This document shows positions 2,850-58,664 of a stretch of 64,000 nucleotides of DNA, piece after piece. The notes beneath the pieces are model-generated. The model had not been told where the DNA came from. It saw nothing but the letters and a program-made list of their open reading frames with translations, and did no database searches. Source of the stretch: a virus (lineage: Duplodnaviria > Caudoviricetes); IMG/VR virus record IMGVR_UViG_3300027983_002388. The stretch is one strand, 5' to 3'. Numbering within the stretch: position 1 is the stretch's first letter; every line of letters begins with the position of its first letter. A program made the translations under genes and the position numbers.

Positions 2850-2864
2850 ACCATAAATACAATT

Positions 2865-3221
2865 ATGACAGCATCATCAGTAACAGGCGTATCAGGACCA
2901 GGCGCAGCAACAAGCAAAGGTCCACACAACAATCGTGACACTTATGTACCATTGGCTGGTCCAAGAGTGATTGTGGCAGGATCGGCAACACTAGACGGAG
3001 GGGGCGGCTTTACACTAGAGTTTCCTACGCCACTACCCGGTGGATTCTACAACTATTCTTACGCTGTAACGCCTCTAGGTTCGGAACGATTCTCTGTAAC
3101 TGTCGGTGGAGCCGAAAACGCTGAAGGCGAGCTAGCAAGCATCACCATCATTGGCAACAGCAACAAGACGATTACTTATATGGTAGTCAGCAATGGGCAA
3201 GCAGCCATTCCTTTAAGCTAA
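2865..3221 (+). CDS. putative virion structural protein, paralog of 11375..11713
   Basis: G/S/T-rich beta-type sequence; N-terminus SVTGVSGPG shared; TAAATA box 5 nt upstream. Confidence 0.55.
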   Translation: MTASSVTGVSGPGAATSKGPHNNRDTYVPLAGPRVIVAGSATLDGGGGFTLEFPTPLPGGFYNYSYAVTPLGSERFSVTVGGAENAEGELASITIIGNSNKTITYMVVSNGQAAIPLS

Positions 3222-3233
3222 AGGAGCAGGCTC

Positions 3234-3686
3234 TTATTCCTTCAGCACAGCCTTCTTGACGTGCTTGTTTTTATTCATCCATTCTAAAAACGCAGGTCTG
3301 CTTTTGCGTGTTGACACTTTGACTTCATAGGTGAATTCTTCTGTTTGTTTCACGGCAAGAATTTTTCCCCCATCATCAGATACAATCTTGGCCAAGGATC
3401 GTGCGTCGGATTCTTTGGTGACATCTACGACAACCGTAAGTTGCTGTGTTGAGGTTAGCTCATAGGTTATCACGCCTATTCCAGCCAAAGCCATAACCGA
3501 AGCCATTGACAAAACAATTCGCTGAGTCCATTTCATGAATGAGTTGGACTTCTGTTTTGCTGGCATTACGATTCGCCCCATGTCAACAAGACAGTCTTCC
3601 ATACTTCCTTGTTCTTTCATAAATTTCAAATGTCCCGGTAGGTTCTCAAGGGACATTGGAATTTGTTCATCTTTTGGTGTTGCCAT
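3234..3686 (-). CDS. single-pass membrane protein
   Basis: AGGAG SD; hydrophobic IVLSMASVMALAGIGVITY. Confidence 0.7.
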   Translation of the reverse strand: MATPKDEQIPMSLENLPGHLKFMKEQGSMEDCLVDMGRIVMPAKQKSNSFMKWTQRIVLSMASVMALAGIGVITYELTSTQQLTVVVDVTKESDARSLAKIVSDDGGKILAVKQTEEFTYEVKVSTRKSRPAFLEWMNKNKHVKKAVLKE

Positions 3687-3721
3687 TTTATCTCCTTTTT
3701 GGTGGCTAACGTATTTAGTAT

Positions 3722-4000
3722 ATGCTCAATACAATTACACCAGAATTCGTCCACTACATCCCTGAAGACATGCAAGAAGGCGTACTGTATGTTTCTTTGG
3801 AGTACAGCACAGCGATCCACAAGTGCTGCTGTGGCTGCGGACATCAAGTCTGTACGCCAATTGATCCCAATCCACCACACAACGGCTGGACGCTTATAAA
3901 CGACGATGGCAAGGTATCTCTCAGCCCGTCAATAGGCAACTTCCAGTTGTCTTGTAAAACACACTACTTCATCAAAGAAAACCAAGTCATGTGGTGTTAA
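3722..4000 (+). CDS. DUF6527-like Cys/His zinc-binding protein
   Basis: GVLYVS..Y.TAIHKCCCGCG...TP...GWTL....GKVSLSPSIGN..LSCKTHYFI pattern recognised from memory. Confidence 0.7.
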   Translation: MLNTITPEFVHYIPEDMQEGVLYVSLEYSTAIHKCCCGCGHQVCTPIDPNPPHNGWTLINDDGKVSLSPSIGNFQLSCKTHYFIKENQVMWC

Positions 4001-4076
4001 TTACTTCACGACATATTAGCAAATTAGTGGAGGAAATGTACGCTGAAGATTACAAACTATTTGAGTATATATTTTA

Positions 4077-4319
4077 ATGGAATCATTCAAAGAATATATC
4101 AACGAAGGAAAAGATCGAGGCAACAATAGGATTGAGGCCATATCGACTCTCGTATCTGCTTTGAAAACAGCACTCGGTCAGTACGATATATCAACCCGTC
4201 ATTTCGTCTGGGAGCATCTCAACAGCCAAAAAGGGAAAGAATTGATGGAAAAGATTCTACGCAATCCGAAAACCTACCTTTCCGACAGCGAATTCACCAA
4301 GTTGGTTATAAAGAAATGA
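4077..4319 (+). CDS. small protein with capsid-targeting-like N-terminus (MESFKEYINEG)
   Basis: very close to T4 IP-type MKTYQEFIAE; TATATA 5 nt upstream. Confidence 0.75.
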   Translation: MESFKEYINEGKDRGNNRIEAISTLVSALKTALGQYDISTRHFVWEHLNSQKGKELMEKILRNPKTYLSDSEFTKLVIKK

Positions 4320-4409
4320 CGTGTTGACTTCAGACGAGAAAAGAGTAAATTGTGTTGGATCAGTTGGATCGCCGACTGAAATTTCCGATTCTCTCGAAGG
4401 AGTCTTGCA

Positions 4410-4949
4410 GTGAAGAAGTTTCTCTCAGTTATGGCTGCAATCGCAGTCCTCGTGGCCTGGAGTGGCACAGCTCCGGCTCAATGTGGCAGCGGGCGTTTCT
4501 TTAGTGGCCAAAACCAATGCGAGAATGGCTACTTCGGTGGTTGGCGAGTGATTCACTCGAACTATTCCCCCGTCTACTCGCACAGCAGCTTTGGATCGTG
4601 TTCCAGTGGAGGATATGTGACGGCGAGTCAACCAGTGCCTCAGACGGTGCCATACATCGAAAACAAAGGCACCAACAAGGCCGTGATGCCTGATCCAAAT
4701 TACCAACCCTATAAGGGTGGCAATTTGCCAGCTCCTACTCCAAAGAAGACTTCCCAACCGGGAGACCTTCCTCTGCCTCCGAAGAAGATTCAGCCGCCGA
4801 ATCCTCGCCAAGATGGATTTCCCGAAGGGACCATTCAGATTGACAACCAATCGTATGGCAGATTGCTTGACGGTACTTACGCCAAGATTTCCGATGGGAC
4901 GTACTCTCGCTTGAAGGGCAATACGGCATACGGAAGTTACTCGAAGTAA
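4410..4949 (+). CDS. secreted Pro/Gly-rich protein
   Basis: signal peptide MKKFLSVMAAIAVLVAWSGTAPA; low-complexity C-terminal part; starts at GTG. Confidence 0.65.
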   Translation: MKKFLSVMAAIAVLVAWSGTAPAQCGSGRFFSGQNQCENGYFGGWRVIHSNYSPVYSHSSFGSCSSGGYVTASQPVPQTVPYIENKGTNKAVMPDPNYQPYKGGNLPAPTPKKTSQPGDLPLPPKKIQPPNPRQDGFPEGTIQIDNQSYGRLLDGTYAKISDGTYSRLKGNTAYGSYSK

Positions 4950-5002
4950 TTTGAGTCAGTATCAAAAAGCAAAAGCCAGGGATCAAACCCTGGCTTTTGT
5001 CG

Positions 5003-5371
5003 TTATTTGGGGGCTGGATAACGGTCTATTCTGTTTTTTCGGTCATAAGACCCAAGCATATGACCCTGACGATAATCGTCACTTAATGTCCAACGGATTG
5101 GACCCAGCCACTTGCCATGCCCCCCATCCCAATATCCAGTCATAAATGTAGCTGACGGGGTTGCTGGTTGTGTAGTCGCTCCCACTGCGGGGGCAACTGG
5201 ACTTGATTCTGACGGTACAGGAACAGGTTGAACCTGCCTGATTTCTGACATAGGCGATTCGTTGATTGGACGAGCCTCCGGCTTAACTCGCACAATGCTA
5301 ATGATACCTAAGATCACAAGTGGAGTCGAAAGTATCGCCAACAATAATACGACAAAGAAACTCTTTTTCAT
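5003..5371 (-). CDS. membrane-anchored Pro-rich protein
   Basis: GGAGG SD; N-terminal hydrophobic helix. Confidence 0.7.
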   Translation of the reverse strand: MKKSFFVVLLLAILSTPLVILGIISIVRVKPEARPINESPMSEIRQVQPVPVPSESSPVAPAVGATTQPATPSATFMTGYWDGGHGKWLGPIRWTLSDDYRQGHMLGSYDRKNRIDRYPAPK

Positions 5372-5432
5372 AAGTCCTCCTTTATCGTATATACCTGCAC
5401 ACTGGAATAATTCAGAGGTTACAAGAAGTTAA

Positions 5433-6383
5433 ATGCGAGTTGCATCTATCACTATGATCGGTCAGTTTCCCGATGGGATCAACATTCATGTAAGAAATTT
5501 GAAATGGGCATTGACGGAAGATGACCACATTTTCATCATTACTTTGCCATCTTTTATTGAATCTCTTGATCTAAAAAACGATAAGCAAGTCACCTACATT
5601 CCCTTCCATACACAACTTAATTCGGAAAAAGGATTCATCAACTTTTGGAAATATTTTCCGAAAATAATCAAAGAGTACAAAATATACCCTGAGTGGTTTT
5701 TGTTCATGGAGGAAGACATTTGGTTTTTTGCCAAGCCACTACTCCAAAGCGATCCTAAAATTATCCGTGGATATTTACCTCGTGGCTCGTACAGAAACAT
5801 CTTACTCGACGACCAAATCATACACAATCGAGTGTGGGAAGGTGCGCAGGTAATCCACAGTGATATTGTGAAAAACGCCATCAATTTCGGCATCGACTTT
5901 TCTTTTGTGCGAAACACATTCTTGGTCAAGAACAGAAAAAAATACGAAGATGAATTTGGTGGCGAGATTACCATGTCCATGTATCAGAACCCTGATACAT
6001 TTGACGAGTTTGGTCTATATTGCGCTTTGGTCGAAAAGACGAAAATGCAACATGAAGTTAAAGCTCTGCATGTTCGTGGGCCGGAAAGTCTGCACCGCAT
6101 GTATCCCGATGCTTATTTGCACGCAACCAAACAACGCATAGATGAAATACAAAAGAAATTGCCATATATTGATGTTCTACTTGCTGTTGCTGTATATTAC
6201 ACAGTTGGATTGTGGAAGCACATTCATCATTTGGACTGGACCAAGGCTCAGATAGAAAGTAAGAGAGAAATACAGCGGCTGTTGTTGACTGGTAACGAAT
6301 GGATTACATTCGAGGAATACACCAAATTAGATTCATTGCATGTCTTAATGAATGGCTTATCTCCGAGCAGGAAGAAGGTATAA
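5433..6383 (+). CDS. putative GT-A fold glycosyltransferase-like protein
   Basis: 316 aa; WFLFMEEDIW (DxD-like acidic motif after a hydrophobic strand). Confidence 0.45.
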   Translation: MRVASITMIGQFPDGINIHVRNLKWALTEDDHIFIITLPSFIESLDLKNDKQVTYIPFHTQLNSEKGFINFWKYFPKIIKEYKIYPEWFLFMEEDIWFFAKPLLQSDPKIIRGYLPRGSYRNILLDDQIIHNRVWEGAQVIHSDIVKNAINFGIDFSFVRNTFLVKNRKKYEDEFGGEITMSMYQNPDTFDEFGLYCALVEKTKMQHEVKALHVRGPESLHRMYPDAYLHATKQRIDEIQKKLPYIDVLLAVAVYYTVGLWKHIHHLDWTKAQIESKREIQRLLLTGNEWITFEEYTKLDSLHVLMNGLSPSRKKV

Positions 6384-6505
6384 TGCGATATACTCATTCT
6401 CCGGGCGATCTCGATCAGCAATCGTCGGTTTCTATGTGAGAAAGCCGGACTTCTATCGGTACGAGCAAGACTGATAAGCCAAGCTGGTTTCACCCGGAGA
6501 GTGAG

Positions 6506-6913
6506 TTGTCTTTGGTCAAATTTATTGGATTCGATATGATACGCAAAATTACTGATCCGTGGGAAGTAAGCAAAGATGCACCGCCCAAGACTCTGGAAGG
6601 AGCCATCGTATTTTTGAATAATTGGTTATCTCAAACATCAGGTAAAGAAAAAGACGAAGACCCTGAGCAACCTATGATTGAGGTAGTTACAAAGATGATA
6701 AACGAAAACCCAACCGAATGGTGGCTTGGACATCATTTCGGTTGGGGCATGGGTATGAGAAACATACTTCGCAAGAATGGATACGACGAGCAAACGCTCG
6801 GCGTCAGCAATCTTGACGATTACTACATTGGGCTGATCGAGCAAGCATGTTTAGGCAAGGGAAACCATCACCATGAAATGCCTAGTCTCGACGCCGATAG
6901 TACAAAAGAATGA
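6506..6913 (+). CDS. DUF6794-like hypothetical protein
   Basis: PKTLEGAI...HHFGWGMGMRN pattern; N-terminal RKITDPWEVS motif. Confidence 0.5.
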   Translation: MSLVKFIGFDMIRKITDPWEVSKDAPPKTLEGAIVFLNNWLSQTSGKEKDEDPEQPMIEVVTKMINENPTEWWLGHHFGWGMGMRNILRKNGYDEQTLGVSNLDDYYIGLIEQACLGKGNHHHEMPSLDADSTKE

Positions 6914-6998
6914 CTCGTCTAATGTGATCTGCTTCGATTTTTCCCCACGATCCATCGTCGTGAAAAATCTCTTTAATGAATTTCCATATTCGGTTCAT
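6882..6998 (-). CDS. 38-aa small ORF (MNRIWKFIKEIFHDDG...)
   Basis: AAGGAGG SD and upstream TAAATA; below ORF-track length cutoff. Confidence 0.45.
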   Translation of the reverse strand: MNRIWKFIKEIFHDDGSWGKIEADHIRRVILLYYRRRD

Positions 6999-7031
6999 AT
7001 AGCCTCCTTTGCCAAAAGGAACCGAATGTAT

Positions 7032-7628: not shown

Positions 7629-7630
7629 CC

Positions 7631-8359
7631 TTAAAATTTCACTTGAGCCAAACACGGCGGCATAATTTGTTTGAGCATTGACACTGGAATATACGCCATG
7701 AGTTTATCTTGCTGGCTTCTAGGATCAGGGCGAACTCGCAATGTTGCAGCACCCATCCGATAGTTACCTCGTTGATCGAATCCCTCATCTTCGGCCCCGG
7801 CTCGCATCTCTTCTATGAGCTTTTTGGCTTCAGCAACGCTTACCAACACGATTTTGCCGCCAACTCGACTTAGAACAGCATAGAACTCAGCTTTGCCAAC
7901 CATGTCTCTACCAGGGACGCCACGGCGATAATCCTTCATGACTTCAAAGAGAATATCATCTCCAGTATCACGATATTTGATTTGAATGGGTTTTTCACCG
8001 CTGGGAGTGTCCCACCATCCGTCAACCTTGTCATATTTATCTTCTTGAGTGGATGGCTCTCTAAGTTTCATTCCACATTGAACCAAGCTATCAAATATCT
8101 GCTTTTCAATACTTTTGCCATATTGAACTCTCTGGTCAATGTCCTGAAATCTATTGCCCATACGCATTTGAGGCGGTGAAGTACGATCAGCAGGGTTTGG
8201 AGCATGACCAAGAGATGGCTTAGGAATTTCTTCTTCAGGATTTGTCACAGGTATCACCGGCTTTTGTTGTTGCATACGACGAGGATCACGGCCAAAGGCT
8301 CCACCTACGGGGCCTCGCCAGCGAGCTTCATTAGTTGATAACCATTTTGAAAAGTTCAT
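7631..8359 (-). CDS. PD-(D/E)xK-like nuclease domain protein with capsid-targeting-like N-terminus (MNFSKWLSTNEA)
   Basis: GKSIEKQI...EDKYDKVDGW...IQIKYR; TAAATA 4 nt upstream. Confidence 0.6.
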   Translation of the reverse strand: MNFSKWLSTNEARWRGPVGGAFGRDPRRMQQQKPVIPVTNPEEEIPKPSLGHAPNPADRTSPPQMRMGNRFQDIDQRVQYGKSIEKQIFDSLVQCGMKLREPSTQEDKYDKVDGWWDTPSGEKPIQIKYRDTGDDILFEVMKDYRRGVPGRDMVGKAEFYAVLSRVGGKIVLVSVAEAKKLIEEMRAGAEDEGFDQRGNYRMGAATLRVRPDPRSQQDKLMAYIPVSMLKQIMPPCLAQVKF

Positions 8360-8411
8360 AGCTTATTTATCTCCCAAGCTACATATTATTCAAAGTTAAA
8401 TATAATGAAAT

Positions 8412-8688
8412 ATGATTGAGCATGAACCAGAAGAAATCCGAATCAAAACATACAAAGACCCTTTAATGGATGGGAAGCTCCTCATGGGACACACACACAC
8501 AATATAAAGGCAACAGCCATATGGGTGCTGGATATTTCTTTGCGCCTTACGTCCCTTTGACTCGAACTCCGACCGTTTTTGGTCAGACGCACCAAGCTGT
8601 TGATTACGCTCGTGGTGATGATGTTGTAAAGCCAACAAAAGCTCACAGAAGCATCACCGATCCGTGGGAAGTTTCTCGATTCGACTGA
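8412..8688 (+). pseudogene. major capsid protein (gp23-like) C-terminal mini-gene, frameshifted at a (CA)6 tract
   Basis: frame 1 IKTYKDPLMDGKLLMG (8412-8489) + 13-nt CACACACACACAA + frame 2 YKGNSHMGAGYFFAPYVPLTRTP; matches the gp23 C-terminal YKG...GY(F/Y)(A/C)PY(V/I)PL motif. Confidence 0.7.
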
Positions 8689-9296: not shown

Positions 9297-9328
9297 AAAA
9301 AAGGACGGCTTTCAGGCCGTCCTTTTTT
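9297..9328. terminator. intrinsic terminator (bidirectional form)
   Basis: AAAAAAGGACGGC-tttcag-GCCGTCCTTTTTT. Confidence 0.85.
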
Positions 9329-9353
9329 ATTGCGCCAAGTCGTACATACCTTC

Positions 9354-9557
9354 ATGAATTTCAAACATTGGTTATCTCTGAACGAGGGCGGTTGGATTAG
9401 CAAAGGCAAAGCACAAAACTCTTTGTTCAAGCCCGGCCCCAAAGATACAACACCAAAACCACACGATCTAAAACTTTGTGGTATCGGCGGCGGTCCAGGT
9501 CCTGGTGGTGCATGCGCAAGTGCCGGAGGCGGGGCAACGGCTGTTCCTGTTAAGTAA
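9354..9557 (+). CDS. small Gly/Pro-rich protein with capsid-targeting-like N-terminus (MNFKHWLSLNEG)
   Basis: TACATA 5 nt before ATG 9354; no SD. Confidence 0.65.
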   Translation: MNFKHWLSLNEGGWISKGKAQNSLFKPGPKDTTPKPHDLKLCGIGGGPGPGGACASAGGGATAVPVK

Positions 9558-10663: not shown

Positions 10664-11239
10664 TTACTCGTATTTTTCAATCAAGAAATTTGGCAACTTA
10701 GGAGCGATGATTGAAAGCAATTCAAACGCTCCTTTATTGGTAAACACGATTTCGTATCTGCCTCTACACTGATGCAGATCACAGGTGCAATCTAGCGAAT
10801 TGAAATATTCAGCTATGATCTTTGTGCCTTCTTCGCCAAACTTGTGAGTCCGCAAATAGGCTTTTCTTTTACTTTTCCGACCGGCATCAACAAACCAAAC
10901 CATCCAGGCTTCGTCTGTCAATATTTCCAGCATCTCACGAGTCACTGTCTTAGCGCCATCTTTGTAATACATTTCGTATGCTTCATTGAAGATTGGAAAA
11001 GCAACACTGTAACACCTGTAAGTGTTTTTGTCTTTCTTGATGGTATTTTGGTCGATCTTGAAGAAATCCTTTAAGACCTCGATCTTATAAGACAACCACA
11101 TATTGTCGTGGTCACGCATGGCGAGGTAACAATTCTTACCACGCTCAGGGTGAATGATAGAGGAGCCTCCAAGGATGGTCCCGTATAGCACTTGTCTCTG
11201 GCTGTCTTTTAAGTTTGGTCCGCACTGATAAGTCATCAT
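10664..11239 (-). CDS. LAGLIDADG_2-like protein lacking both catalytic Asp
   Basis: QVLYGTILGGSSI and LTDEAWMVWFVDAG; AAGGAG SD supports start at 11239 rather than 11788. Confidence 0.75.
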   Translation of the reverse strand: MMTYQCGPNLKDSQRQVLYGTILGGSSIIHPERGKNCYLAMRDHDNMWLSYKIEVLKDFFKIDQNTIKKDKNTYRCYSVAFPIFNEAYEMYYKDGAKTVTREMLEILTDEAWMVWFVDAGRKSKRKAYLRTHKFGEEGTKIIAEYFNSLDCTCDLHQCRGRYEIVFTNKGAFELLSIIAPKLPNFLIEKYE

Positions 11240-11374
11240 TGTCTCCTTGTTGCCATATATACGTTTCGCAACATTGTTCCCGAAGATATGTAGTAGAAAT
11301 CGGAATAAAAATATGAGCAGCATAGCTATTGTGAACAAAAAGTTCACTCGCATTAAAAAAAGGAGATAAATACT

Positions 11375-11713
11375 ATGGGAGCAACAAGCGTAACAGGCGT
11401 TAGTGGTCCAGGAAGCGTAGCCGGTCTTCAGAAGGGTTCGGAGCATATGTCTCTTGGCGTAGCCAAGTTGATTGGTCCGAAGGTTTCTGCTGCTGGTAAG
11501 ATTACTTTGACTGGCACAACTGGCGTTGTAGAATTTCCAGAATTGGTTGGTGTAGTTGGCGATTACGTCGTCATGTTGACTGCTAATAGCGTCACACATG
11601 TTTTCGTTTCGACACCATTGGCCGCTATTGCAAGCACAGATCAGTGGGGATTCGTCGCAACTGGTGGTACTAATGCAGTAGTTAATTGGGCAGTCGTTAA
11701 AGTCGGCAACTAA
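11375..11713 (+). CDS. putative virion structural protein, paralog of 2865..3221
   Basis: MGATSVTGVSGPG; AGGAG SD. Confidence 0.6.
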   Translation: MGATSVTGVSGPGSVAGLQKGSEHMSLGVAKLIGPKVSAAGKITLTGTTGVVEFPELVGVVGDYVVMLTANSVTHVFVSTPLAAIASTDQWGFVATGGTNAVVNWAVVKVGN

Positions 11714-11820
11714 TTGATGACAAAATGAAAGAATTGAATGAAGCAAAAAAGTGATGCCCGGCAGCATTGCTCTTTTGGAAAAAGGCAAAACTCATCCTTA
11801 TTAGCCTTTCTAATTAAGCT

Positions 11821-12539: not shown

Positions 12540-13076
12540 TTAATCCTCCAAGATTCCAGCGTGATCGAGAGATTGCACGAGTTTGATTAGATGTTTGCAC
12601 ATTCCTGGCATTTCGAGCGGATTCGCCGAGCCAGGATTTACATTCGCTTCGTACTTCTTTCTGACTCTTCCATACAACGATGTATCTATGTGATCTGTGT
12701 AGTTGAAACGCCATTTGAAATCGTTACAATCACACCGAACCAACACATTGTTCTCTTTATCGAGTCTTTCAAAAACGTAGTGACGACCATCGTTCGCTAC
12801 AATCTCGATCCAGTTCTGGTTGTCTTTGGAGTCGTGATAATTCACGCCTTTGAACAATACCATAGGGGAATATTCTTTTCCGCTTTCTTCACTATGCGCA
12901 ATACCCTTTATGAACAGGGTTTTAACTCCCAAGAAAGGCGTCCAATTCAACTCGATGATCCGAACTAAATCGGTGGCATGTTGTCTTTTGGTCGTCTGGG
13001 GGAAGGCTTGAACCGTACTTGTGTAAAGGTCTTGAAGATTAGATTCTTGAAAAACCAGCCAATTTTGGAAACGCAT
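12540..13076 (-). CDS. SWIM zinc-finger protein with capsid-targeting-like N-terminus (MRFQNWLVFQES)
   Basis: CDCNDF...MCKHL; TAAATA 4 nt before ATG 13076. Confidence 0.75.
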   Translation of the reverse strand: MRFQNWLVFQESNLQDLYTSTVQAFPQTTKRQHATDLVRIIELNWTPFLGVKTLFIKGIAHSEESGKEYSPMVLFKGVNYHDSKDNQNWIEIVANDGRHYVFERLDKENNVLVRCDCNDFKWRFNYTDHIDTSLYGRVRKKYEANVNPGSANPLEMPGMCKHLIKLVQSLDHAGILED

Positions 13077-13109
13077 ACAATATTTAAGCAGCCAAACTAT
13101 ATTATTGAC

Positions 13110-21910: not shown

Positions 21911-21944
21911 AAGCGGACCCGATTTATTTCGGGTCCGCTTTTTT
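21911..21944 (+). terminator. intrinsic terminator
   Basis: AAGCGGACCCGA-tttatt-TCGGGTCCGCTT-TTTT. Confidence 0.85.
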
Positions 21945-21968
21945 GTTGCGCCAACCCTAAATAACAAC

Positions 21969-22229
21969 ATGAGTTTAATAGGCTTCAAAGAATGGCTATC
22001 TAAGACTGCACCAGAAGGTGGAGGCGAAATATGGGACAACCGTTCCAATGCCGATCTCGATTTCGGGAGAACAGGAGCTAAATCCAGAAATGTCTCTCAA
22101 AACAAGTCAGGTCAAGTGGAGATAGACCCTGAAAAGCTATTCTTTGGAATATCCAAAAAGCGAAACCCTAAACTAGATACAGATAAGAATTCCAATACCG
22201 GAGGAAGTAATGAAAACAATTACATTTAG
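21969..22229 (+). CDS. small protein with capsid-targeting-like N-terminus (MSLIGFKEWLSK)
   Basis: TAAATA 5 nt upstream; first gene of a coupled cluster. Confidence 0.7.
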   Translation: MSLIGFKEWLSKTAPEGGGEIWDNRSNADLDFGRTGAKSRNVSQNKSGQVEIDPEKLFFGISKKRNPKLDTDKNSNTGGSNENNYI

Positions 22230-26499: not shown

Positions 26500-26555
26500 A
26501 AAATAGAATAAATTGTACTATATATCTTAGCTGCTTCTGACAACAAGGAGGAATC

Positions 26556-29973: not shown

Positions 29974-30278
29974 TATTTGTTCCCTTCAGTAATATTTTTC
30001 GCAAGGATATATCGGACATTCCGAGGGGTATATCCTGTAAATTCGGCTATTTCTCGCACACCCCAGCCCAATTGAGAAAGATTCATCACTTTCTGATGAT
30101 TTACCTTTTGTCTATTTGGCGACACATCATTTGAGTGTAGAATACGATATATTTCCGCCTCCGACTTCCCAAATTGCTGGGCGATTTCCGAGATGCGTAT
30201 TTTTGGGCTGTTAAGGTAAACATTTATGATGTCCCCGTCCCCGCCCTGATCGGTTATGAATTGTTTGAATCCGTACAT
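29973..30278 (-). CDS. double helix-turn-helix protein with capsid-targeting-like N-terminus (MYGFKQFITDQ)
   Basis: ISEIAQQFGKSEAEIYRIL and VREIAEFTGYTPRNVRYIL. Confidence 0.75.
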   Translation of the reverse strand: MYGFKQFITDQGGDGDIINVYLNSPKIRISEIAQQFGKSEAEIYRILHSNDVSPNRQKVNHQKVMNLSQLGWGVREIAEFTGYTPRNVRYILAKNITEGNK

Positions 30279-30365
30279 GCTTTATTAACGCTTGTGGGAT
30301 ATTTTTTCCCAAAGGGCATTGACCCACTTGATGAGCAACTGTAACATTTAGGACTGGAGACTGAT

Positions 30366-35721: not shown

Positions 35722-35796
35722 AATTATTCCTCTTTCGATCTAAACGGGTTAAATCTATATATGTCAGGCTCCAAATCTTTTCCAAAGGAACGGGAA

Positions 35797-36860: not shown

Positions 36861-37046
36861 TCACATGAAATAACGTGTATTGGTTTTATAGATCGAGTTT
36901 TTTCTTTGATTTGTCTTTTGAATACGACTAATCAACCTTTGTTGCTGCTCGGTCAATGGTGGATTTGTTGCAAGATTAGTGCTTCCGCAACCACAACCTT
37001 TCGGTTTCTCTTCTGGTTTGTCGCTTGGTACTTGCAATTCATCCAT
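36861..37046 (-). CDS. small basic protein with GCGC motif
   Basis: TAAATA 4 nt upstream. Confidence 0.6.
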   Translation of the reverse strand: MDELQVPSDKPEEKPKGCGCGSTNLATNPPLTEQQQRLISRIQKTNQRKNSIYKTNTRYFM

Positions 37047-37055
37047 ACTCTATTT

Positions 37056-38570
37056 ATGAATGAGCAACCAAAAAGGATTTCCAATATGTTTACAGAAGAC
37101 GATGTTTTGAAGTTGATTGAAAAAGCAATCGAAGCTGCATTCAAAAAGTTTAAGGCGGGATGCTATCAGGACGCCGAAATAATACTCAATCAAACCATTA
37201 AAGTCTTTCCTACAGAAATTCACGCATTGCAATTGATGGGTCTTGTAAAACACAATCTTGGCAAATTCACAGAAGCCATCGACATCTTCAACAAAACAAT
37301 AGAAATTGCTCCCAACGATCCAGAAAACTATAACAACATAGGTTTGTGTTATTCAAACAATGGAAAATACGATGCTGCAATTGAAATGCTAAAAAAGGCC
37401 ATCGAACTAAATCCAACTTGCGCCTACATGCACAGCAACCTGGGGCTTCAACACAGAAACATCAATAATCTCGATTCCGCTATCGAATGTTTCCAAAAAT
37501 CACTTTCTATCGAAGAGAGTGATTTAACCTGGGGCATGTTAGGTGGATGCTACGGGGAAAAACGTCATTTAGACGACGCTGAAAGGTGTTTCAAAAAGTC
37601 GATTGAAATCAACCCAAACTTTGCTGGTGGCCATGTAGACTTGGCAAACGTATATCACTTAAAAGGCGAGTGGGATAAGGCTTGGGAAGAATACGAATGG
37701 CGATATGAAGTATTTGAACAACTTAAAGTATGGAAAAATCTCTATGACCCAAGCAAGACATGGAATGGCGAACCACTTGATGGCAAGACTATAATCGTTC
37801 ATGGAGAACAAGGTCACGGTGATACCATTCAGTTCTTCAGATACATCCATCATTTGAAAGCTCGTGTCATATTACACTGTTCAAATGATTTGGCTTCTAT
37901 TTTTGCTGGTCATGTAGATGAGATTTACACAAATGAACCTAGTGAAACTAAAACAGAACAATTGCCAGTTCACGACTACCACTGTTCTATTTTGAGTTTG
38001 CCTTATCTTCTAAAACTGAAAGCGATACCGCCTTTCTCATTGAAGATTGACAAAAGTATAAATCTTGATGGTTACTCTAATCTAATGAAGATCGGCATTG
38101 TTTGGGCGGGAAATCCACAACATCCAAACGACGCCAATCGCTCCTGCCATCTGAAACATTTTCGTGAGATTCATGATATTCCTGGCGTTAAATTGTTTAG
38201 CTTAGTCAAGGACATACGACCTCGCATCTACCGCTTTAACGCCAATCCAATTGATCTCACCGAAGAAACTGAGGACATGAAAATTGTGGATATGGCACCA
38301 ATGATGGAAACATTCAGAGACACAGCAGAAGTCATCAATTCTCTCGATTTAGTGATTACTGTAGACACATCTGTTCTGCATCTCGCCGGATCAATGGGAA
38401 AACCGACCTGGGCCTTATTGCCGTGGACTTGTGACTGGAGATGGGGTTCAGGAGAAGAAACAATATGGTATCCGAGCGTTCGGATATTTCGCCAACCGTC
38501 CAAAGGCGATTGGCAGTCAGTATTTTCAAACATCAAAAAAGAGATTTACAATGAACAACGATTATGTTGA
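37056..38570 (+). CDS. TPR-repeat protein with C-terminal GT-B (GT9-like) glycosyltransferase domain
   Basis: about 5-6 TPRs; EQGHGDTIQFFRY, DLVITVDTSVLHLAGSMGKPTWALLP. Confidence 0.88.
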   Translation: MNEQPKRISNMFTEDDVLKLIEKAIEAAFKKFKAGCYQDAEIILNQTIKVFPTEIHALQLMGLVKHNLGKFTEAIDIFNKTIEIAPNDPENYNNIGLCYSNNGKYDAAIEMLKKAIELNPTCAYMHSNLGLQHRNINNLDSAIECFQKSLSIEESDLTWGMLGGCYGEKRHLDDAERCFKKSIEINPNFAGGHVDLANVYHLKGEWDKAWEEYEWRYEVFEQLKVWKNLYDPSKTWNGEPLDGKTIIVHGEQGHGDTIQFFRYIHHLKARVILHCSNDLASIFAGHVDEIYTNEPSETKTEQLPVHDYHCSILSLPYLLKLKAIPPFSLKIDKSINLDGYSNLMKIGIVWAGNPQHPNDANRSCHLKHFREIHDIPGVKLFSLVKDIRPRIYRFNANPIDLTEETEDMKIVDMAPMMETFRDTAEVINSLDLVITVDTSVLHLAGSMGKPTWALLPWTCDWRWGSGEETIWYPSVRIFRQPSKGDWQSVFSNIKKEIYNEQRLC

Positions 38571-40141: not shown

Positions 40142-40840
40142 TTATTTTTTTGCTTTCAAATCATCAAAGACAAAGTTTCTCATCTTGTCCAAGCTGCACA
40201 TCTTTGGCTCGACGACCCCTGTGTTGGCAAGAGTCGGGATCAACATGCGACGATCAGCCGGTCGAAATCGCTTGCGATAAAATCCATCGACCGCATCTTT
40301 ATATTTCAAAAACAAAGAGGACATGCTCACGCCTGGAGTTGTTTCTGACAAGTTGAAAGTCGTCAAAATACTCACGATGGTTTTCATGACTTCATCTATG
40401 TGTATTTTCTTTTTGCTTTTGCCGATCCTGGAGAAGTTCAAGAACCAGAGCATGGTATCAGGATCGTATAAAAACAACGGGTTCACCAAACCGGCGTGGC
40501 AATGAGCGTCGATATAATCCTCAATTTGAGAAATCCAGAGTTTTTGACCATTGTTGGCTTGGATATAGTTCTGAAAATAGAAGTACCCAATTATGCTCCG
40601 AAAGCTCAAAATCAAGACATCTCGGTTTCCCTTGTTGTTTAAGCCATGCCGAAGACAAAAGGAACAGTAAAAATTTCCTGGACCGGAGAGCCTATCTATA
40701 AGCGATGATTGGACACTAGCGGTTTCGCAGTTCTTTTCGCAAAAGAAGCATTTACGAAAAACTTTGTCCGATAGCTCTCCTGAAAGGGTGGCTGGGATCG
40801 GTTTGAGCCGAACTTGGCTTATAGAAAGTTTTTCAGACAT
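40142..40840 (-). CDS. zinc-finger-containing hypothetical protein
   Basis: CFFC...YCSFC. Confidence 0.65.
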   Translation of the reverse strand: MSEKLSISQVRLKPIPATLSGELSDKVFRKCFFCEKNCETASVQSSLIDRLSGPGNFYCSFCLRHGLNNKGNRDVLILSFRSIIGYFYFQNYIQANNGQKLWISQIEDYIDAHCHAGLVNPLFLYDPDTMLWFLNFSRIGKSKKKIHIDEVMKTIVSILTTFNLSETTPGVSMSSLFLKYKDAVDGFYRKRFRPADRRMLIPTLANTGVVEPKMCSLDKMRNFVFDDLKAKK

Positions 40841-40926
40841 CGTTTATTCACCGAAATTTGTAAAAGCTCGCATACATAATAAGAAGCGAGTGAACTCTAC
40901 TCAATCACCAGAACGAGGAAAAAAAT

Positions 40927-44840: not shown

Positions 44841-44873
44841 CTTCCCCATGACGTAAATAACGTCATGGGGAAG
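44841..44873 (+). promoter_or_regulatory. 13-bp hairpin with the TAAATA late box in the loop and the start codon in the 3' arm
   Basis: CTTCCCCATGACG-taaataa-CGTCATGGGGAAG; ATG at 44865. Confidence 0.75.
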
Positions 44874-46642: not shown

Positions 46643-46753
46643 ATCCCCTCCGTGTGAAATGTGACTTGAAGTGACTTCTGATGTTATATAGCCTCAATAT
46701 TTTGATATTGCACACTCCTTTATGTCGTCCAACCTTTTATCGGAGGAAACAAA

Positions 46754-52503: not shown

Positions 52504-52594
52504 GTATATAATAAACAACTTTTTTTAGAATGGTTGAAAAATAAAGGCGTATATAGGATCAAAGAGCGAATAAATCACCAAATGAAATAAAGAG

Positions 52595-53467
52595 TCACCC
52601 CATCATGGGTCCAAGCAAATCGCCCCATTTAGAAATTAGCTTTTCTTCCCAATCCTTCTTTTCTTGAAGACCTTCGGCAAGAATAGCCTGACCATCTAAT
52701 TGAACGCCGCCACCAGGACCGGGAGGGTTAGCAATACGACTGCGAATGCGACCCAAAACGATCTTAGCGAATGCTAAAGACCCTTCCTGCATTGCCTGTG
52801 TCACCATTCGGAAATCTGGGCGGCGTTGTAAATACCGCACAGCGACAGGATAACTGCGATAAGGGATTGGATATAGCTTAATGTGGTTGTACCCACCTAG
52901 AAACTCCCATCCACCTTGCTGACTTGAGATTCTGTTGTACATATCTTCATATTGTTTGTATAAAACCCAATCGGACATATTGCCCCAAACTGGCTGTTGA
53001 GGGTTAATGCCACCGGCAATTGAGCCATAGGCTCCACCACCCATATAATCCAGAGGAATTACGCCACCCAAATCGGAAGCTGAAAAAGCATAATTGGCTG
53101 TTTCTTTATAGGAAATTTGTCTAATAAAGCCCACATCAGGTGGCATTTGATAAACGCTCTGTCCTGGTACTGTATAAAAAGTATGGTATTGAAAATATTC
53201 CATTGGGGCATAATCTTCAAAGATTTGCAGGGCGAAATCAATGCAGTTTTCGATCTGTTGATCGTCCAATTCGAGCGGCAAAACTGGTGCGCCGAGCATA
53301 GTCAGGACATATTCTTTAATTTGTCCACGCACTTTTTCTCTATTTCTGCGTGGGCCGATCTTATCTAAAGGATCGGTAGGGCCTAAATCTCCGCAGCCCT
53401 GTCCACAAGAAAGCTGTGAGAATTGGTCCTTAGTCGGTCGTGGGACAAAAAGCATATTGTTCATCAT
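52595..53467 (-). CDS. gp13: neck protein (T4 gp13-like)
   Basis: QIKEYVLTMLGAPVLPLELDDQQIENCIDFAL; GGGVQLDG..I..EG. Confidence 0.8.
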   Translation of the reverse strand: MMNNMLFVPRPTKDQFSQLSCGQGCGDLGPTDPLDKIGPRRNREKVRGQIKEYVLTMLGAPVLPLELDDQQIENCIDFALQIFEDYAPMEYFQYHTFYTVPGQSVYQMPPDVGFIRQISYKETANYAFSASDLGGVIPLDYMGGGAYGSIAGGINPQQPVWGNMSDWVLYKQYEDMYNRISSQQGGWEFLGGYNHIKLYPIPYRSYPVAVRYLQRRPDFRMVTQAMQEGSLAFAKIVLGRIRSRIANPPGPGGGVQLDGQAILAEGLQEKKDWEEKLISKWGDLLGPMMG

Positions 53468-53513
53468 GGTGATATATAGGAAGAGTACAAATGAAACTCG
53501 TAAAGGCAGGATT

Positions 53514-56483
53514 ATGGCTGTAATCACAAAATCGTTCCGTGACTTCTTCACTAAGAGTTTTACTGAAGAAAAGGCATACAGAGACTTTGGCACACGACAT
53601 TTCAAACTTTTATATGAAATGGCCCAGCGATTTCACAAACTAAACGCAATGCCAGCAAACATTGATGACGACGACCTAGAATTTCTGGGACAGTTCCCTC
53701 ACGACTATTGGATCAAAGCCAAACAAGCTCGCTATCAAATGTTTTTTGATGCTGTGAAGGGTCTTCACAAGAAAAGACATGAAGAACACGGACAGCCAAA
53801 ACTCAAACAAGCCATTATCACTGCCATCGAAACTGGCGAGTATGGACATCTTCAGGGAGTCATTCCTGATCGGAACATCAACCAATTGAAGAGGGTAGGA
53901 ACTACCCTAAGTGCCAAAGAACGTGCCGATGAAGCCGAAAAGCTCTCGCACGATCATGTGAAAGACAAAACGCCTCACATTGATGAACCACAAGGAGAAA
54001 TTCCATTCACACTCAAGGGATCAAGCGACAAGACAGCCACAAGAAAACCTGTGACGTTTATGGCAAAGCCATTTCTTAATCGACTCTATCACAAATTGGA
54101 AACAACTCCTGGCAATCCTTTTCACCCGGAGTCTGGGCTAAATGGGACGGGCAAGTATGGCCTTGATATGGCTGAACCTATGGATTCAAGAACCATTAAA
54201 TCGCACGACGAAGATGGTGACGAAACTGAAGTCACTTACCCGAATTCTACAGCAGGCATGAAGTTTCCTACGGACTCTCAAATCCGTGACAGAATGATTG
54301 ATTATTTTAATCTTAATGCCCACCGGATGTTCGGTAACTTGCCAGAAGACGCTGAATGGAAGCCCGTTCCTGGAATGCAGGACACTTGGTCTGTAGGGTA
54401 TGTCAGACAAGAGCTTCAAAAAAGAATTGAAGCTCAACTGCGAGTCAGCGGCAAAAAATACGAAAAAGAAAGTGAAATGAGAAAAGAAGCCGCCGACTTA
54501 GTAAAACAGCACATCGTGAAAATGGCTGAATCTGGTCAATTAAAAGGACCGCCGATTCCTGGTCAATTTCCAGATGGCATTCCAATTAAAATTGAGGGCG
54601 GCAAACTTGTGAATCCTCCATTGTATCTTCCGTATCAAATTAAAGATATTAAGATGCGAGATGAAAATGGTGGCGTCAAAGTAGTACAAAAAGCCGTTCC
54701 TGTGGTAAAGCCTGCTCACTTCTTCCGTGAACTCGGAAGTGATGAATCAGATTATGAACACGAATTAGGTGATGATGGTCAGCCAACCGACAAAAGAAAG
54801 TATGATCCAACTACCGGAGAGCCGGTTTATCGGGTTCCTCAAGAAAAATTGAGGGGACACGAAAGACAATTCGTTCATGTTGGAGATGAAGAGTTTCAAA
54901 AGAAAAAACATCGAGCCGCTGGCGCTATTGATTTCAATAGCGAAACAGAACAGGTTATGCACATAACAAAAGGCGATCCTGGTTGGCAAGAAGCCTGGGA
55001 AAAGGCTTTTGGAGATCAACAAAAAGTTGAGATTGATCGTCGTGGTAATGCTACACCTTCAAATAGCGAATCTGGATTCTACGAAGACATCATCGCTGGC
55101 ATAAATCAATGTTTTAAGAGTAGTCATTGTGGTGGAGCTACGCATCATGAACTTGAAATGTTGAAAAACAACATTGAAGACTTCCATCAAATAGTTGTAA
55201 TTAAAATGCTCAATAGCATGGGCGACCCAAATTTGTACACAAGCTCAGGACGCAAAGCCTTTGCTTACAACAAGGTTTCTTCAATTATGCAGAAAGACCT
55301 TGGAAGTGGTGGTGGAACTCGTCGAAAAAGAAACTTGACACAAACTAGCAGAAACACAAGTTTCAGTGCTGGTGGCGAAAAAAATATTGAAGACGATTTA
55401 ATGGGCCAACTCGCTGGTGGTACGGGTAAAATCCGTGGCAGCAAAAAGCGTGGGAAGGGAGATCGCCAATTCGACACATCGGGAATGAACACTCCTTACA
55501 ATTTGACAAACATGAGAGAAGCCTTGATGCAAATGCAAAAGGATGCTCAAGAGGCCGATTCCACAAGCGATGAAGCAAAGAAATTAAGTCAAAGACAAAG
55601 GGGAACAGAAATCATCAATATGCTTCGGGATGGCATAAAAAAACAAATTGATTTCAAAATGTATTTAACAGATACATTGATTGGATTGTACCAACAAGGA
55701 GGAATGGGTAAAGGCGAAGCAGAACAAGCAGCCCAAGCTCAAATGAAAAGTTGGCAGGACGAAGATGGACATAACTCATCTGAGACGTTGATGGCAGCAT
55801 TTCAAAACCACCCACTTGTTCAAAGTGCAATTGGCGCAGCCGGTGAGGATAAAAAACAAGACGGTCAAGTACAACCAACCGACAAAGAGGACAACGCCAA
55901 CGAACAAGAGGCCATGCGATTCTTGCAATCGACATTTGATAAAATGCAGAGTGCAGGTTTTGATGAAGACGACATCAAAGATAAACTATTGGCAAAACCT
56001 GGAGAAAAATACAGTATATTTGTCAAGCAATTGGTCGCACAACAATTTGGCGGCATAAACGATAAAACTACTAAGTTGTTGGATCGTGTACAAGGTGAAA
56101 TCAACAGACGCTTTAAGCTACCATCACCAGCGGCAGCACAAGCGGCCAGAGTTGTCACGACTCCACAAAGCAATGAACTAGCTAAGAAAAAACTAGGACA
56201 AACGCCAGAAGCAGAAGCGAAGCCAGTTCCAACTGTTGCTCCGACTACAAGAATTCCAACACAACAAGTTCCTATTCCTACTGAAAGTGTAAGTGAATTG
56301 TTCGCTAAGAAAAATTGGCTTGGGCTTGCTCACCATCCAGATTATTTGGGAACACACTCTCCAGTATTAGATGCACAAAAATTGAAGTTGCTAAATCACT
56401 TCAAAACAAACAAGGATAAGTACCAGCAGAATGAGATTGAATCTGCTATTGCGAACCTTGAAAGATCAATAAGGAGAGGTTAA
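53514..56483 (+). CDS. 989-aa putative internal/ejected virion protein (MAVITKSFRDFF)
   Basis: long ORF inside the neck module; no catalytic motif recognised. Confidence 0.65.
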   Translation: MAVITKSFRDFFTKSFTEEKAYRDFGTRHFKLLYEMAQRFHKLNAMPANIDDDDLEFLGQFPHDYWIKAKQARYQMFFDAVKGLHKKRHEEHGQPKLKQAIITAIETGEYGHLQGVIPDRNINQLKRVGTTLSAKERADEAEKLSHDHVKDKTPHIDEPQGEIPFTLKGSSDKTATRKPVTFMAKPFLNRLYHKLETTPGNPFHPESGLNGTGKYGLDMAEPMDSRTIKSHDEDGDETEVTYPNSTAGMKFPTDSQIRDRMIDYFNLNAHRMFGNLPEDAEWKPVPGMQDTWSVGYVRQELQKRIEAQLRVSGKKYEKESEMRKEAADLVKQHIVKMAESGQLKGPPIPGQFPDGIPIKIEGGKLVNPPLYLPYQIKDIKMRDENGGVKVVQKAVPVVKPAHFFRELGSDESDYEHELGDDGQPTDKRKYDPTTGEPVYRVPQEKLRGHERQFVHVGDEEFQKKKHRAAGAIDFNSETEQVMHITKGDPGWQEAWEKAFGDQQKVEIDRRGNATPSNSESGFYEDIIAGINQCFKSSHCGGATHHELEMLKNNIEDFHQIVVIKMLNSMGDPNLYTSSGRKAFAYNKVSSIMQKDLGSGGGTRRKRNLTQTSRNTSFSAGGEKNIEDDLMGQLAGGTGKIRGSKKRGKGDRQFDTSGMNTPYNLTNMREALMQMQKDAQEADSTSDEAKKLSQRQRGTEIINMLRDGIKKQIDFKMYLTDTLIGLYQQGGMGKGEAEQAAQAQMKSWQDEDGHNSSETLMAAFQNHPLVQSAIGAAGEDKKQDGQVQPTDKEDNANEQEAMRFLQSTFDKMQSAGFDEDDIKDKLLAKPGEKYSIFVKQLVAQQFGGINDKTTKLLDRVQGEINRRFKLPSPAAAQAARVVTTPQSNELAKKKLGQTPEAEAKPVPTVAPTTRIPTQQVPIPTESVSELFAKKNWLGLAHHPDYLGTHSPVLDAQKLKLLNHFKTNKDKYQQNEIESAIANLERSIRRG

Positions 56484-56752
56484 TGGCAAGTTGGATGGAC
56501 TACATGAGTAATCCCCGTGGGCATTACTTGAAAAAGACAATGTTTGAAGTGTTACAAGAAAGATATGCACAGAATGAGCAGATTATCGAAAGAATGGGAG
56601 TGACCCTCCTTACAGAAAGTGATCTCACTGCGTTCATGAAAATGGTCGCTGACATTTATGAAATGGCTTACCTGAAAGCCGTCAGTGACCACAAAGAACA
56701 ACTTCAAAAGGCGGGGTTGGTTGCAAGGGTTGTCTCGCCAGGAAGATCATAG
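56483..56752 (+). CDS. hypothetical protein
   Basis: TAATG coupling; 89 aa. Confidence 0.7.
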   Translation: MASWMDYMSNPRGHYLKKTMFEVLQERYAQNEQIIERMGVTLLTESDLTAFMKMVADIYEMAYLKAVSDHKEQLQKAGLVARVVSPGRS

Positions 56753-57370
56753 ATCAAAAGAAGGCTGGTGATCTGAAGGTGTTGCCGATAAGACCCAGCC
56801 TCCTCCTTTTTGTTGTTTTCCCTGAACTCTCCACCATCTTTTGTATCCTTGTTTTGGAAACAAAATAGAGCCAGCATTGATTGCGTCGGTGTCTGTCCAG
56901 ATTTCAATAAACAAATCTTGTTGGTTGAGAATCACTCCTTCAAAAGAAATGGGCTTTCCGTATTGAACGGTAGTATAAGAATCGCCATAAAGTGAATCTT
57001 TTCTGTTTCTCAATACGGCTGGCAAGCAATGAATGAAAGTTTTTTCGATTCCACTATCTGTGGATGCTCGAAGTTCTTCTCGCTGAAGATCAGGTTGAAC
57101 AACTGGTTTTCTTTCAACCACTTGTGGCTGAGATTCTGATTTGACTTCAGAAACCTTAATGTCGGCCTTGGCTTTATCTAAAGCAGACAAAAAAGTCTCT
57201 CGGACATCAAAATCGGATGCCAAAGGGGTAACTTGATTAGTATCTTTGGCTGTTTCGCCATCCCACTGCATATTGTGGACCTTGAAGCCTTCCCATATTT
57301 CTTGGGTCTTCATTACTGGATTTGGTCCAGCGAGACGATAGACGCTTCCATCTTTATTTTTCAATGTCAT
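56747..57370 (-). CDS. hypothetical virion-module protein sharing its N-terminus with the gp14-like gene
   Basis: MTLKNKDGSVYRL versus MTLKNLNGTPYQL. Confidence 0.65.
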   Translation of the reverse strand: MTLKNKDGSVYRLAGPNPVMKTQEIWEGFKVHNMQWDGETAKDTNQVTPLASDFDVRETFLSALDKAKADIKVSEVKSESQPQVVERKPVVQPDLQREELRASTDSGIEKTFIHCLPAVLRNRKDSLYGDSYTTVQYGKPISFEGVILNQQDLFIEIWTDTDAINAGSILFPKQGYKRWWRVQGKQQKGGGWVLSATPSDHQPSFDL

Positions 57371-57433
57371 TGAATATTCAGCCCCTTTATGTTTATATAG
57401 ATTGAAGACAAAAACAAAATAAAAGGATGAATT

Positions 57434-57859
57434 ATGTCGCTAGTGGTTCCAAATATTTCCAATGTTCTCATGCTTCAATACATTGTGAACATGATTGGGC
57501 AAGACGGTGCCGCCGCTCCTGCGGGTGGTCAACGTCTGCTTCGTCTTTTTACAAACAATCTAACACCCGGTAAGTCAACCGTAATTGCAGATGTTACTGA
57601 AGCAACGGCACCTGGTTATGTGCCATACACAATGGTAGGAAGCAGTTGGACAACAACATCAAATTTGGGAGTGAATTCCGCAGTTTACAGTGAACAAACT
57701 TTCGCATTTACGACAGGTGTGACCATTTACGGCTACTACGTTACTACAATTGAAGGTACACCTAGATTATTGTGGGTGGAAAGATTTTCCACGGCTCCGT
57801 ACACTTTGCCAGCAGGCGGTGGCGAGATCGCAATATCCCCACGTTTTACATTAAATTGA
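57434..57859 (+). CDS. putative virion structural protein
   Basis: LRLFTNN.TP....ADVTEAT..GY...EQTF.FT...IYGYYV pattern of phage tail-associated proteins. Confidence 0.65.
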   Translation: MSLVVPNISNVLMLQYIVNMIGQDGAAAPAGGQRLLRLFTNNLTPGKSTVIADVTEATAPGYVPYTMVGSSWTTTSNLGVNSAVYSEQTFAFTTGVTIYGYYVTTIEGTPRLLWVERFSTAPYTLPAGGGEIAISPRFTLN

Positions 57860-57883
57860 TTTATATTGACACTTTGACTACTG

Positions 57884-57914
57884 AATGGCGAGAGAGCAAT
57901 CTCTCGCCATTTTT
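57884..57914 (+). terminator. intrinsic terminator with GCAA tetraloop
   Basis: AATGGCGAGAGA-gcaa-TCTCTCGCCATT-TTT. Confidence 0.85.
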
Positions 57915-57933
57915 AATTGTGGATAATTATTTT

Positions 57934-58098
57934 TCATCCACATCTTCCCTGTTTGAATTTGCTAAAGATAACTTTAGCTTCGTTTCCGCATTGGCAACGA
58001 AAAACAACAGGAATTCTATCATTGCTATATGGGCAAAGTAATTCGCATCCATTTTCAATCATGAAAAGAGCAACTTCTTCATTGGTTCTTTTTTTCAT
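57934..58098 (-). pseudogene. truncated homing-endonuclease-type zinc-ribbon repeat
   Basis: CELLCPYSNDRIPVVFRCQCGN....FSKFKQGRCG* stops where CxxC would continue. Confidence 0.5.
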
Positions 58099-58121
58099 TG
58101 TTCCTCCACCATACATACAGC

Positions 58122-58664
58122 ATGACTCTTAAAAATTTGAACGGGACACCGTATCAACTTCGTGGAAGCGTGCAAATGTACGATCCAAATGATCGCACGC
58201 ATGATTTATTTAACCTGTGGGATCAAGAGGCGATCCAACGGGGCGGATCGCCTCTTTACTATTACGAAGTGGTTATTACCCCAAACATGATTGATCCGGT
58301 GTATTTGGAAGCTCGTGGAAAACTGTTTTCAAACAATCCTGTTCAATTATGGTGCAATTACGAGCCGATTCCGTCACAAAACCTAATCAATCAGTTTGGC
58401 ATTGATGCTCCAGATGAAATGAAATTCGAGCTTAACTACCGATCTGTATTACAGAGCATTGGACATCCACCTAAAATTGGATCAAGGTTGTTTACGCCAC
58501 ACCTTAGAGAGAATTGGGTTATTGTTCAAAGAAACCTGGGCGAATTCAAATTATGGGGCGCACTCCGTATTGAATTGATTTGCCAACGATTCCAGGAAGA
58601 CGTGGTTACAGGCGAAGGCAAAGTAACACAAAAACAACCAGATTTGAAAATCAAAATCGTTTAA
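58122..58664 (+). CDS. gp14: neck/head-completion protein (T4 gp14-like)
   Basis: DQEAIQRGGSPLYYY, IDPVYLE, QFGIDAPDE..F, P..G..L. Confidence 0.75.
   Translation: MTLKNLNGTPYQLRGSVQMYDPNDRTHDLFNLWDQEAIQRGGSPLYYYEVVITPNMIDPVYLEARGKLFSNNPVQLWCNYEPIPSQNLINQFGIDAPDEMKFELNYRSVLQSIGHPPKIGSRLFTPHLRENWVIVQRNLGEFKLWGALRIELICQRFQEDVVTGEGKVTQKQPDLKIKIV

Follow-up and report, generated by a model that had tools for sequence, protein, structure and literature searches.

Putative gp55-type late promoters fused to start codons predict leaderless first cistrons in a clade of huge T4-like phages

The late genes of phage T4 are transcribed with the gp55 sigma factor, the gp33 co-activator and the gp45 sliding clamp from promoters that carry the box TATAAATA at positions -13 to -6 and have no -35 element; positions -13 and -12 vary among T4 relatives (Geiduschek and Kassavetis, PMC2988020). 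Here, we analyzed a 64,000-nt stretch of DNA (the window; IMG/VR record IMGVR_UViG_3300027983_002388; GC content about 43%) from an uncultured huge freshwater T4-like phage, where a six-base box, TA[A/C/T]ATA (TAHATA), is located 4 or 5 nt before the ATGs of at least ten genes. We propose, with a probability of about 0.72, that these boxes are gp55-type late promoters fused to start codons and that the first cistrons they serve would be translated from leaderless messages.

The cI gene of phage lambda is expressed from PRM as a leaderless transcript, and in Deinococcus-Thermus bacteria a -10 region adjoining the open reading frame (ORF) is common (PMC12340547). In both systems, as here, a promoter element is found only a few bases before the ATG. 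Both employ the primary host sigma factor; the box described here instead conforms to a phage late-sigma consensus, in a genome that otherwise relies on strong Shine-Dalgarno (SD) sequences. According to a preprint that cites Sevostyanova et al. 2007 (bioRxiv 10.64898/2026.04.20.719267), most transcripts of the large Thermus phages phiYS40 and Lalka27a are leaderless, as shown experimentally; their first nucleotide is the A or G of the initiation codon, and the late promoters have no -35 element. These phages differ from ours in that they are not T4-like, use another -10 consensus (TAGGGT in Lalka27a) and infect a host phylum already rich in leaderless mRNAs; here, only the first cistrons of some units are predicted, from sequence, to be leaderless.

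Compared with T4 late promoters, the boxes share the TAAATA core, the absence of a -35 element and the use of both strands, and a gp55-family sigma factor is encoded in the clade. Leadered copies are also present: about a dozen further intergenic boxes in the window, including those of the gp15-like and sheath genes, are located 16-45 nt before SD-led starts. Unlike in T4, where the box is never 4-5 nt from a start, about half of the boxes here adjoin an ATG, and TATATA and TACATA variants are common. When we searched the literature for leaderless late genes of T4-like phages, we obtained reference-list matches only and no paper describing them; for T4-like phages, the layout is apparently an undescribed combination of two known kinds.

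We scanned both strands of the window for TAHATA and counted the nucleotides between each box and a following ATG (the gap). Among 89 boxes, 12 have an ATG at a gap of 4 or 5 nt; the background for these boxes, over gaps of 0 to 30 nt, is about 1.7 ATGs per gap. The TAHATA-N4-ATG arrangement was seen six times (1.26 expected) and TAHATA-N5-ATG also six times (1.21 expected), and neither count was reached in any of 100 dinucleotide shuffles (at least six in 0/100 for each). An earlier note, made from the letters of this DNA, had listed ten such sites and proposed that box-to-start distances be tabulated. All ten are present at their coordinates (Table 1), and the tabulated distances are not flat, peaking at gaps of 4-5 nt. 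Ten of the 12 matches open ORFs of 61-290 aa, while the remaining two, at 58202(-) and 60802(-), are non-genic and look like chance occurrences.

The window phage and its relatives are a clade of huge T4-like phages. Scanning IMG/VR with the head-tail adaptor protein from the window returned 65 related loci with 53-97% identity, and relatives with 69-97% identical adaptor proteins span GC contents from 36% to 53%. Three relatives are long contigs: G001 (223 kb) is syntenic over the whole window at 77-92% DNA identity, G002 is 225 kb long (36% GC) and G004 is 532 kb long (52.7% GC); CheckV rates G004 as 100% complete and the two shorter contigs as about 50% complete. Against GenBank phages, a megablast search with 12 kb of the window found no match, and the window's sheath protein has only 27-40% identity to that of any deposited phage. 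Each of the ten box-led ORFs has an orthologue in G001 (77-95% DNA identity), and the differences fall mostly on third codon positions (11, 4 and 112 changes at the three codon positions of the adaptor gene, for example). This bias indicates that all ten are real genes in the frame of those ATGs.

The same layout was found in other genomes. G001 has 213 boxes, with 15 ATGs at gap 4 and 10 at gap 5, 15 and 7 of which open ORFs of at least 50 aa; G004 has 12 and 31 such ATGs among 275 boxes; and G002 has 18 and 12. In HTVC008M, a cultured SAR11 myophage, there are 14 ATGs at gap 5 versus a background of about 3. Altogether, the peak at gaps of 4-5 nt is sharp in four further genomes with GC contents of 33-53%. 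In T4 itself, our control, ORF-opening ATGs are found 13-29 nt after TATAAATA, most often at 28 nt, and none at a gap of 4-5 nt. When hexamers 5' of first ATGs were counted without bias, only two classes were enriched: one is the SD sequence, and the other is TAAATA, TATATA, TACATA or TAGATA at gaps of 4-5 nt (35- to 57-fold).

The geometry of these sites was compared with that of T4 late promoters. The six-base box corresponds to T4 positions -11 to -6, so that a gap of 5 nt would put +1 on the A of the ATG. Position counts over 100 box-led sites showed no conserved upstream hexamer and no -35-like element; the sequence upstream of them has only a T-rich tract, derived from terminators or from reverse-complemented SD sequences. 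An apparent upstream element, TTTTTGGTTGC, was rejected, since it traces back to the T-runs of terminators or to the SD of a divergent gene in reverse complement. At position -12 of the box-led sites T is avoided, and in G004 this position is C, yielding CTAnATA as in cyanophage and Aeh1-type promoters. A gp55-family sigma ORF of 183 aa is present in G001, G002 and G004 (phrog_234; E = 6e-9 in the ORF scan, and 1.5e-9 to 1e-7 for the profile matches in the three relatives), and in G001 it is about 2.2 kb past the position to which the end of the window aligns. The T4 gp55 protein used as a query found no match in the relatives; the PHROG profile alone found the homologue.

We found that the box takes the place of the SD. 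Nine of the ten window sites have no SD, in agreement with the earlier note; the purine run it had seen just upstream of 8359 is present as GGGAG, but is 11 nt from the ATG. Across four genomes, an SD precedes only 4 of 98 box-led starts and is absent from the other 94. Orthologues occur in three states: a box adjoining the ATG without an SD, a box about 30 nt upstream together with an SD leader, or an SD only, and in this last state TTG starts are frequent. For the adaptor gene, among 42 distinct orthologue contexts, the box is 3-8 nt from the ATG in 33 (exactly 5 nt in 19) and 31-41 nt upstream, with an SD-like leader, in 5. The 58122 gene has 10 box-led orthologues, all without an SD and all starting with ATG, and 30 SD-led orthologues without an adjacent box (22 ATG and 8 TTG). 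Orthologues of the 2865 gene switch likewise between box-led and SD-led.

Leaderless mRNAs need a 5' AUG, and non-AUG starts work poorly on them. In the same four genomes, box-led starts are 91 ATG to 7 non-ATG (93% ATG), compared to 652 ATG to 350 non-ATG (65% ATG) for SD-led starts (Fisher P = 7e-10), a contrast that is weakened by the presence of some internal false starts in the SD-led set, which inflate its non-ATG share. The ATG bias of the box-led starts fits the known requirement. Together, these comparisons across relatives are the strongest evidence bearing on the probable function of the box. Because the box replaces the SD, demands an ATG and moves to a T4-like distance whenever an SD is present, it behaves as the promoter of a leaderless message and not as an RNA enhancer.

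The local context of two sites limits the space for a leader. The boxes at 9343 and 21958 are each preceded by a strong intrinsic terminator whose end is 14-15 nt away, so that the promoter and any leader would together have to fit into about 25 nt. The two cassettes of terminator, box and N-terminal tag (9297-9356 and 21911-21971) share TTTTTTnTTGCGCCAA between terminator and box, which suggests that recombination has spread a module of terminator, putative late promoter and tag. At 44841-44873, a perfect 14-bp hairpin (-25.3 kcal/mol, z = -7.75; conserved in G001) has the loop AAATA, which is spanned by the box, and places the ATG at 44865 in its 3' arm. A second, unrelated 14-bp hairpin in G001 (around 37430-37475, about 37459) is built likewise, with a box at the loop and the ATG within the 3' arm. 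Both hairpins would silence read-through RNA on a message that is predicted to be leaderless. Burial of the ATG in a hairpin was rejected as a general feature, being found at 19% of box-led and 16% of SD-led starts.

A related arrangement exists in T4, where the late promoters of e, soc and I-TevI are embedded in hairpins that block the translation of early read-through RNA (as reportedly described by, for example, McPheeters et al. 1986). As at e and soc, the late transcript at 44841-44873 would lose the 5' arm of the hairpin and free the start codon. Unlike at e and soc, where the hairpin hides both SD and AUG on a late mRNA that has a leader, only the AUG would be hidden here and there would be no leader.

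The genes that follow box-led genes are SD-led with strong SDs (22210, 58679, 45748, 12535(-) and 4410). The box at 53473-53478 that precedes the adaptor gene at gap 5 is located, on the plus strand, 35 nt before the SD-led ATG at 53514 of a 989-aa gene, and this two-sided arrangement, with a 35-nt SD leader on one side, is conserved in many relatives. Palindromic TATATA boxes occur in six gaps between divergent genes (5388-5393, 26519-26524, 35756-35761, 46685-46690, 53473-53478 and 57394-57399); as TATATA reads the same on both strands, each of the six could be a bidirectional late promoter.

The proposed mechanism is as follows. The TA[A/T/C]ATA boxes would be T4-family late promoters without a -35 element, read by host core RNA polymerase carrying the phage's gp55-type sigma factor. 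At about half of the clade's boxes, transcription would start 5-6 nt past the last A of the box, so that +1 coincides with the A of the ATG. Ribosomes would then begin the first gene of each such unit at a 5'-terminal AUG, on a leaderless mRNA and with no use of an SD; the unit's downstream genes would retain normal SD sites. The box-led units would be self-contained, as terminators or divergent genes immediately precede them, and, in a few cases, a hairpin would bury the ATG in read-through RNA so that only the promoter-proximal transcript could be translated.

Three other explanations were weighed. Initiation in the absence of an SD can be aided by A/U-rich tracts located before the start codon, and the box could be such an S1-type RNA enhancer, replacing the SD that is missing from box-led genes on leadered or polycistronic transcripts made from upstream promoters. 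We consider this quite improbable: the box is sequence-specific, with the TAnATA core of T4-family promoters instead of simple A/U-richness; it is about 30 nt upstream whenever an orthologue has an SD leader, which is the T4 promoter geometry; two boxes closely follow terminators; the 44865 hairpin would block translation of a longer RNA; and the strong ATG bias suits a 5'-terminal AUG, not enhancer-driven 30S initiation. That the sites are chance products of A/T-rich intergenic DNA and of the choice of motif might be argued from a motif that is short and degenerate and from its two non-genic matches among 12. This reading is effectively refuted by the shuffles, none of which reached the observed counts, and by replication in other genomes, where the same sharp peak is found four times (and is absent in T4) and the sites are conserved across orthologues.

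The boxes could instead be -10 elements for the host's primary sigma factor, as at leaderless genes of Deinococcus-Thermus or actinobacteria, giving leaderless messages but no gp55-dependent late program. TAnATA resembles TATAAT at four or five positions, and in some phyla genes commonly have a -10 region adjoining the ORF (PMC12340547). Nonetheless, the box always ends in A, whereas the final T is the most conserved T of sigma-70-type hexamers; neither a TGn extension nor a -35 element accompanies it; and its distance from the ATG is 4-5 nt instead of 6-7. The clade also encodes a gp55-family sigma factor, and the genes concerned are of virion type (the adaptor, and N-termini resembling capsid tags); we regard the host-sigma explanation as unlikely.

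Several observations also weigh against our preferred interpretation as gp55-type late promoters. The box comprises just six bases, and four of the ten sites have TATATA or TACATA and not TAAATA, which is found at the other six. The gp55 homologue, for which the earlier note had suggested a search, was found in syntenic relatives and not inside the window itself. Profiles for gp33 and gp45 (phrog_254 and phrog_223) had no match in four relatives; both proteins are small and divergent, and a control search with phrog_223 also found nothing anywhere. With a gap of 4 nt, strict T4 spacing would start transcription on the U of the AUG, and flexibility in the start site must therefore be assumed. 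Late expression is read from gene identity (the adaptor and the tag-bearing proteins). The TA at T4 positions -13/-12 is not conserved at the window sites; it is likewise not conserved in Aeh1 and cyanophage promoter variants (PMC2988020).

The transcription start, late timing and mode of initiation are what we infer from these comparisons, with the 5' end placed on the A of the AUG by T4 box-to-start geometry and by the two terminators that end 14-15 nt upstream. The earlier note had envisaged a leaderless late program. For first cistrons, the idea is supported indirectly by the fit to the promoter core, the gp55-family sigma gene of a syntenic relative, the T4 geometry, the absence of SDs, the near-constant use of ATG and the toggling of orthologues; it does not extend to the whole program. 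Leaderless messages are predicted for first cistrons only, in roughly half of the candidate late units. Nor could we sustain the note's further claim that late translation is uncoupled from SD-dependent initiation. Because about as many candidate boxes in the window precede SD-led starts, and both the downstream cistrons and about half of the candidate late promoters keep SD leaders, late translation overall is not uncoupled from the SD.

Table 1. Box-led start sites, probable further members and virion genes in the window. The gap is in nucleotides; entries such as TACATA-4-ATG give box, gap and start.
Coordinates	Strand	Box	Gap	ATG	Gene	Context and orthologues
2854..2867	+	TAAATA	5	2865	118 aa, 2865-3221	17-bp hairpin just 5' of box; G001 TACATA-4-ATG; L043 and G004 SD-led
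4066..4079	+	TATATA	5	4077	80 aa, tag-bearing, 4077-4319	G001 TAGATA-4-ATG
8357..8369	-	TAAATA	4	8359	242 aa, tag-bearing, 7631-8359	same box and spacing in G001
9297..9356	+	TACATA 9343-9348	5	9354	67 aa, tag-bearing	terminator 9297-9328; G001 TACATA-4-ATG
13074..13086	-	TAAATA	4	13076	178 aa, tag-bearing, 12540-13076	box adjoins ATG in G001 (gap 4), G004 and G002 (gap 5)
21911..21971	+	TAAATA 21958-21963	5	21969	86 aa, tag-bearing	terminator 21911-21944; head of operon of SD-led genes; same layout in G001; G004 TACATA, gap 5
37044..37056	-	TAAATA	4	37046	61 aa, 36861-37046	divergent to SD-led gene starting 37086(+); site conserved in G001
44841..44873	+	TAAATA 44854-44859	5	44865	256 aa, tag-bearing	hairpin
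53465..53478	-	TATATA 53473-53478, palindromic	5	53467	gp13-type adaptor, 52595-53467	
58112..58124	+	TACATA	4	58122	180 aa, 58122-58664	
40838..40850	-	TGAATA	4	40840	232 aa, without SD	probable member; identical arrangement in G001
57368..57380	-	TGAATA	4	57370	207 aa, paralogue of 58122 gene	probable member; G001 TATATA-4-ATG; alternative TATATA 23 nt upstream in window
30276..30288	-	TTAATA	4	30278	101 aa, tag-bearing	probable member; G001 TAAATA-4-ATG
52595-53467	-				gp13-type head-tail adaptor	phrog_211
60136-61137					gp15-like sheath stabiliser	
61357-63720					T4-type tail sheath	

Relaxing the second position of the box adds the three probable members of Table 1. A candidate eleventh site at ATG 3722 (TATTTA-4-ATG) was rejected because its TATTTA is the reverse complement of a TAAATA located 25 nt before the SD-led gene 3686(-). 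The 53467(-) gene matches the gp13-type head-tail adaptor family; the earlier note had counted a gp13 gene among the ten. For the 58122 gene, we do not endorse the label gp14: only synteny and a weak pairwise match to T4 gp14 (E = 0.015) speak for it, and the protein has no PDB match. Searches of PHROG and Pfam assigned no family to eight of the ten box-led proteins. The 56747-57370(-) gene and the 58122-58664(+) gene, located between the gp13-like and gp15-like genes, form a divergent pair of box-led paralogues (MTLKNKDGSVYRLAG and MTLKNLNGTPYQLRG, respectively).

Six of the ten box-led genes carry an N-terminal tag of the MxxFxxWL type, as had been noted. An N-terminus of the type MxxFxxW(L/F)xxxE is found on many otherwise unrelated ORFs, with starts at 1121, 4077, 8359(-), 9354, 13076(-), 21969, 22541, 22876, 23274, 30278(-), 35721(-), 40927, 44865 and 49949. 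Roughly one tagged gene in two is box-led, and an SD precedes the others. Synonymous codon differences within the tag indicate that it is selected at the protein level. The window also encodes NAMPT and a DNA methyltransferase. In the C-terminal half of a 374-aa ORF, 10664-11788(-), we identified a LAGLIDADG homing-endonuclease domain (phrog_11023, E = 3e-11).

A broader scenario, which we regard as doubtful, is that a large aquatic radiation of T4-like phages, the present clade among them, has moved many late first cistrons to 5'-AUG initiation of the 70S/IF2 type as a deliberate regulatory layer. Their messages would remain translatable if 30S initiation at SDs became impaired or monopolised late in infection, and hairpins and terminators would restrict their reading to gp55-made transcripts.

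Should mapped 5' ends bear this out, late transcription of the T4 type would be tied directly to translation that needs no SD in a very abundant group of aquatic phages, and because the same layout is found in the cultured HTVC008M, a laboratory test is possible. Gene-start prediction would change, as callers that expect an SD would misplace box-led starts. The box and its spacing would also serve as a sequence rule by which late regulons, and probably sets of packaged proteins, could be recognized directly in metagenomes. Finally, one would have to ask why first cistrons are exempt from SD-dependent initiation.

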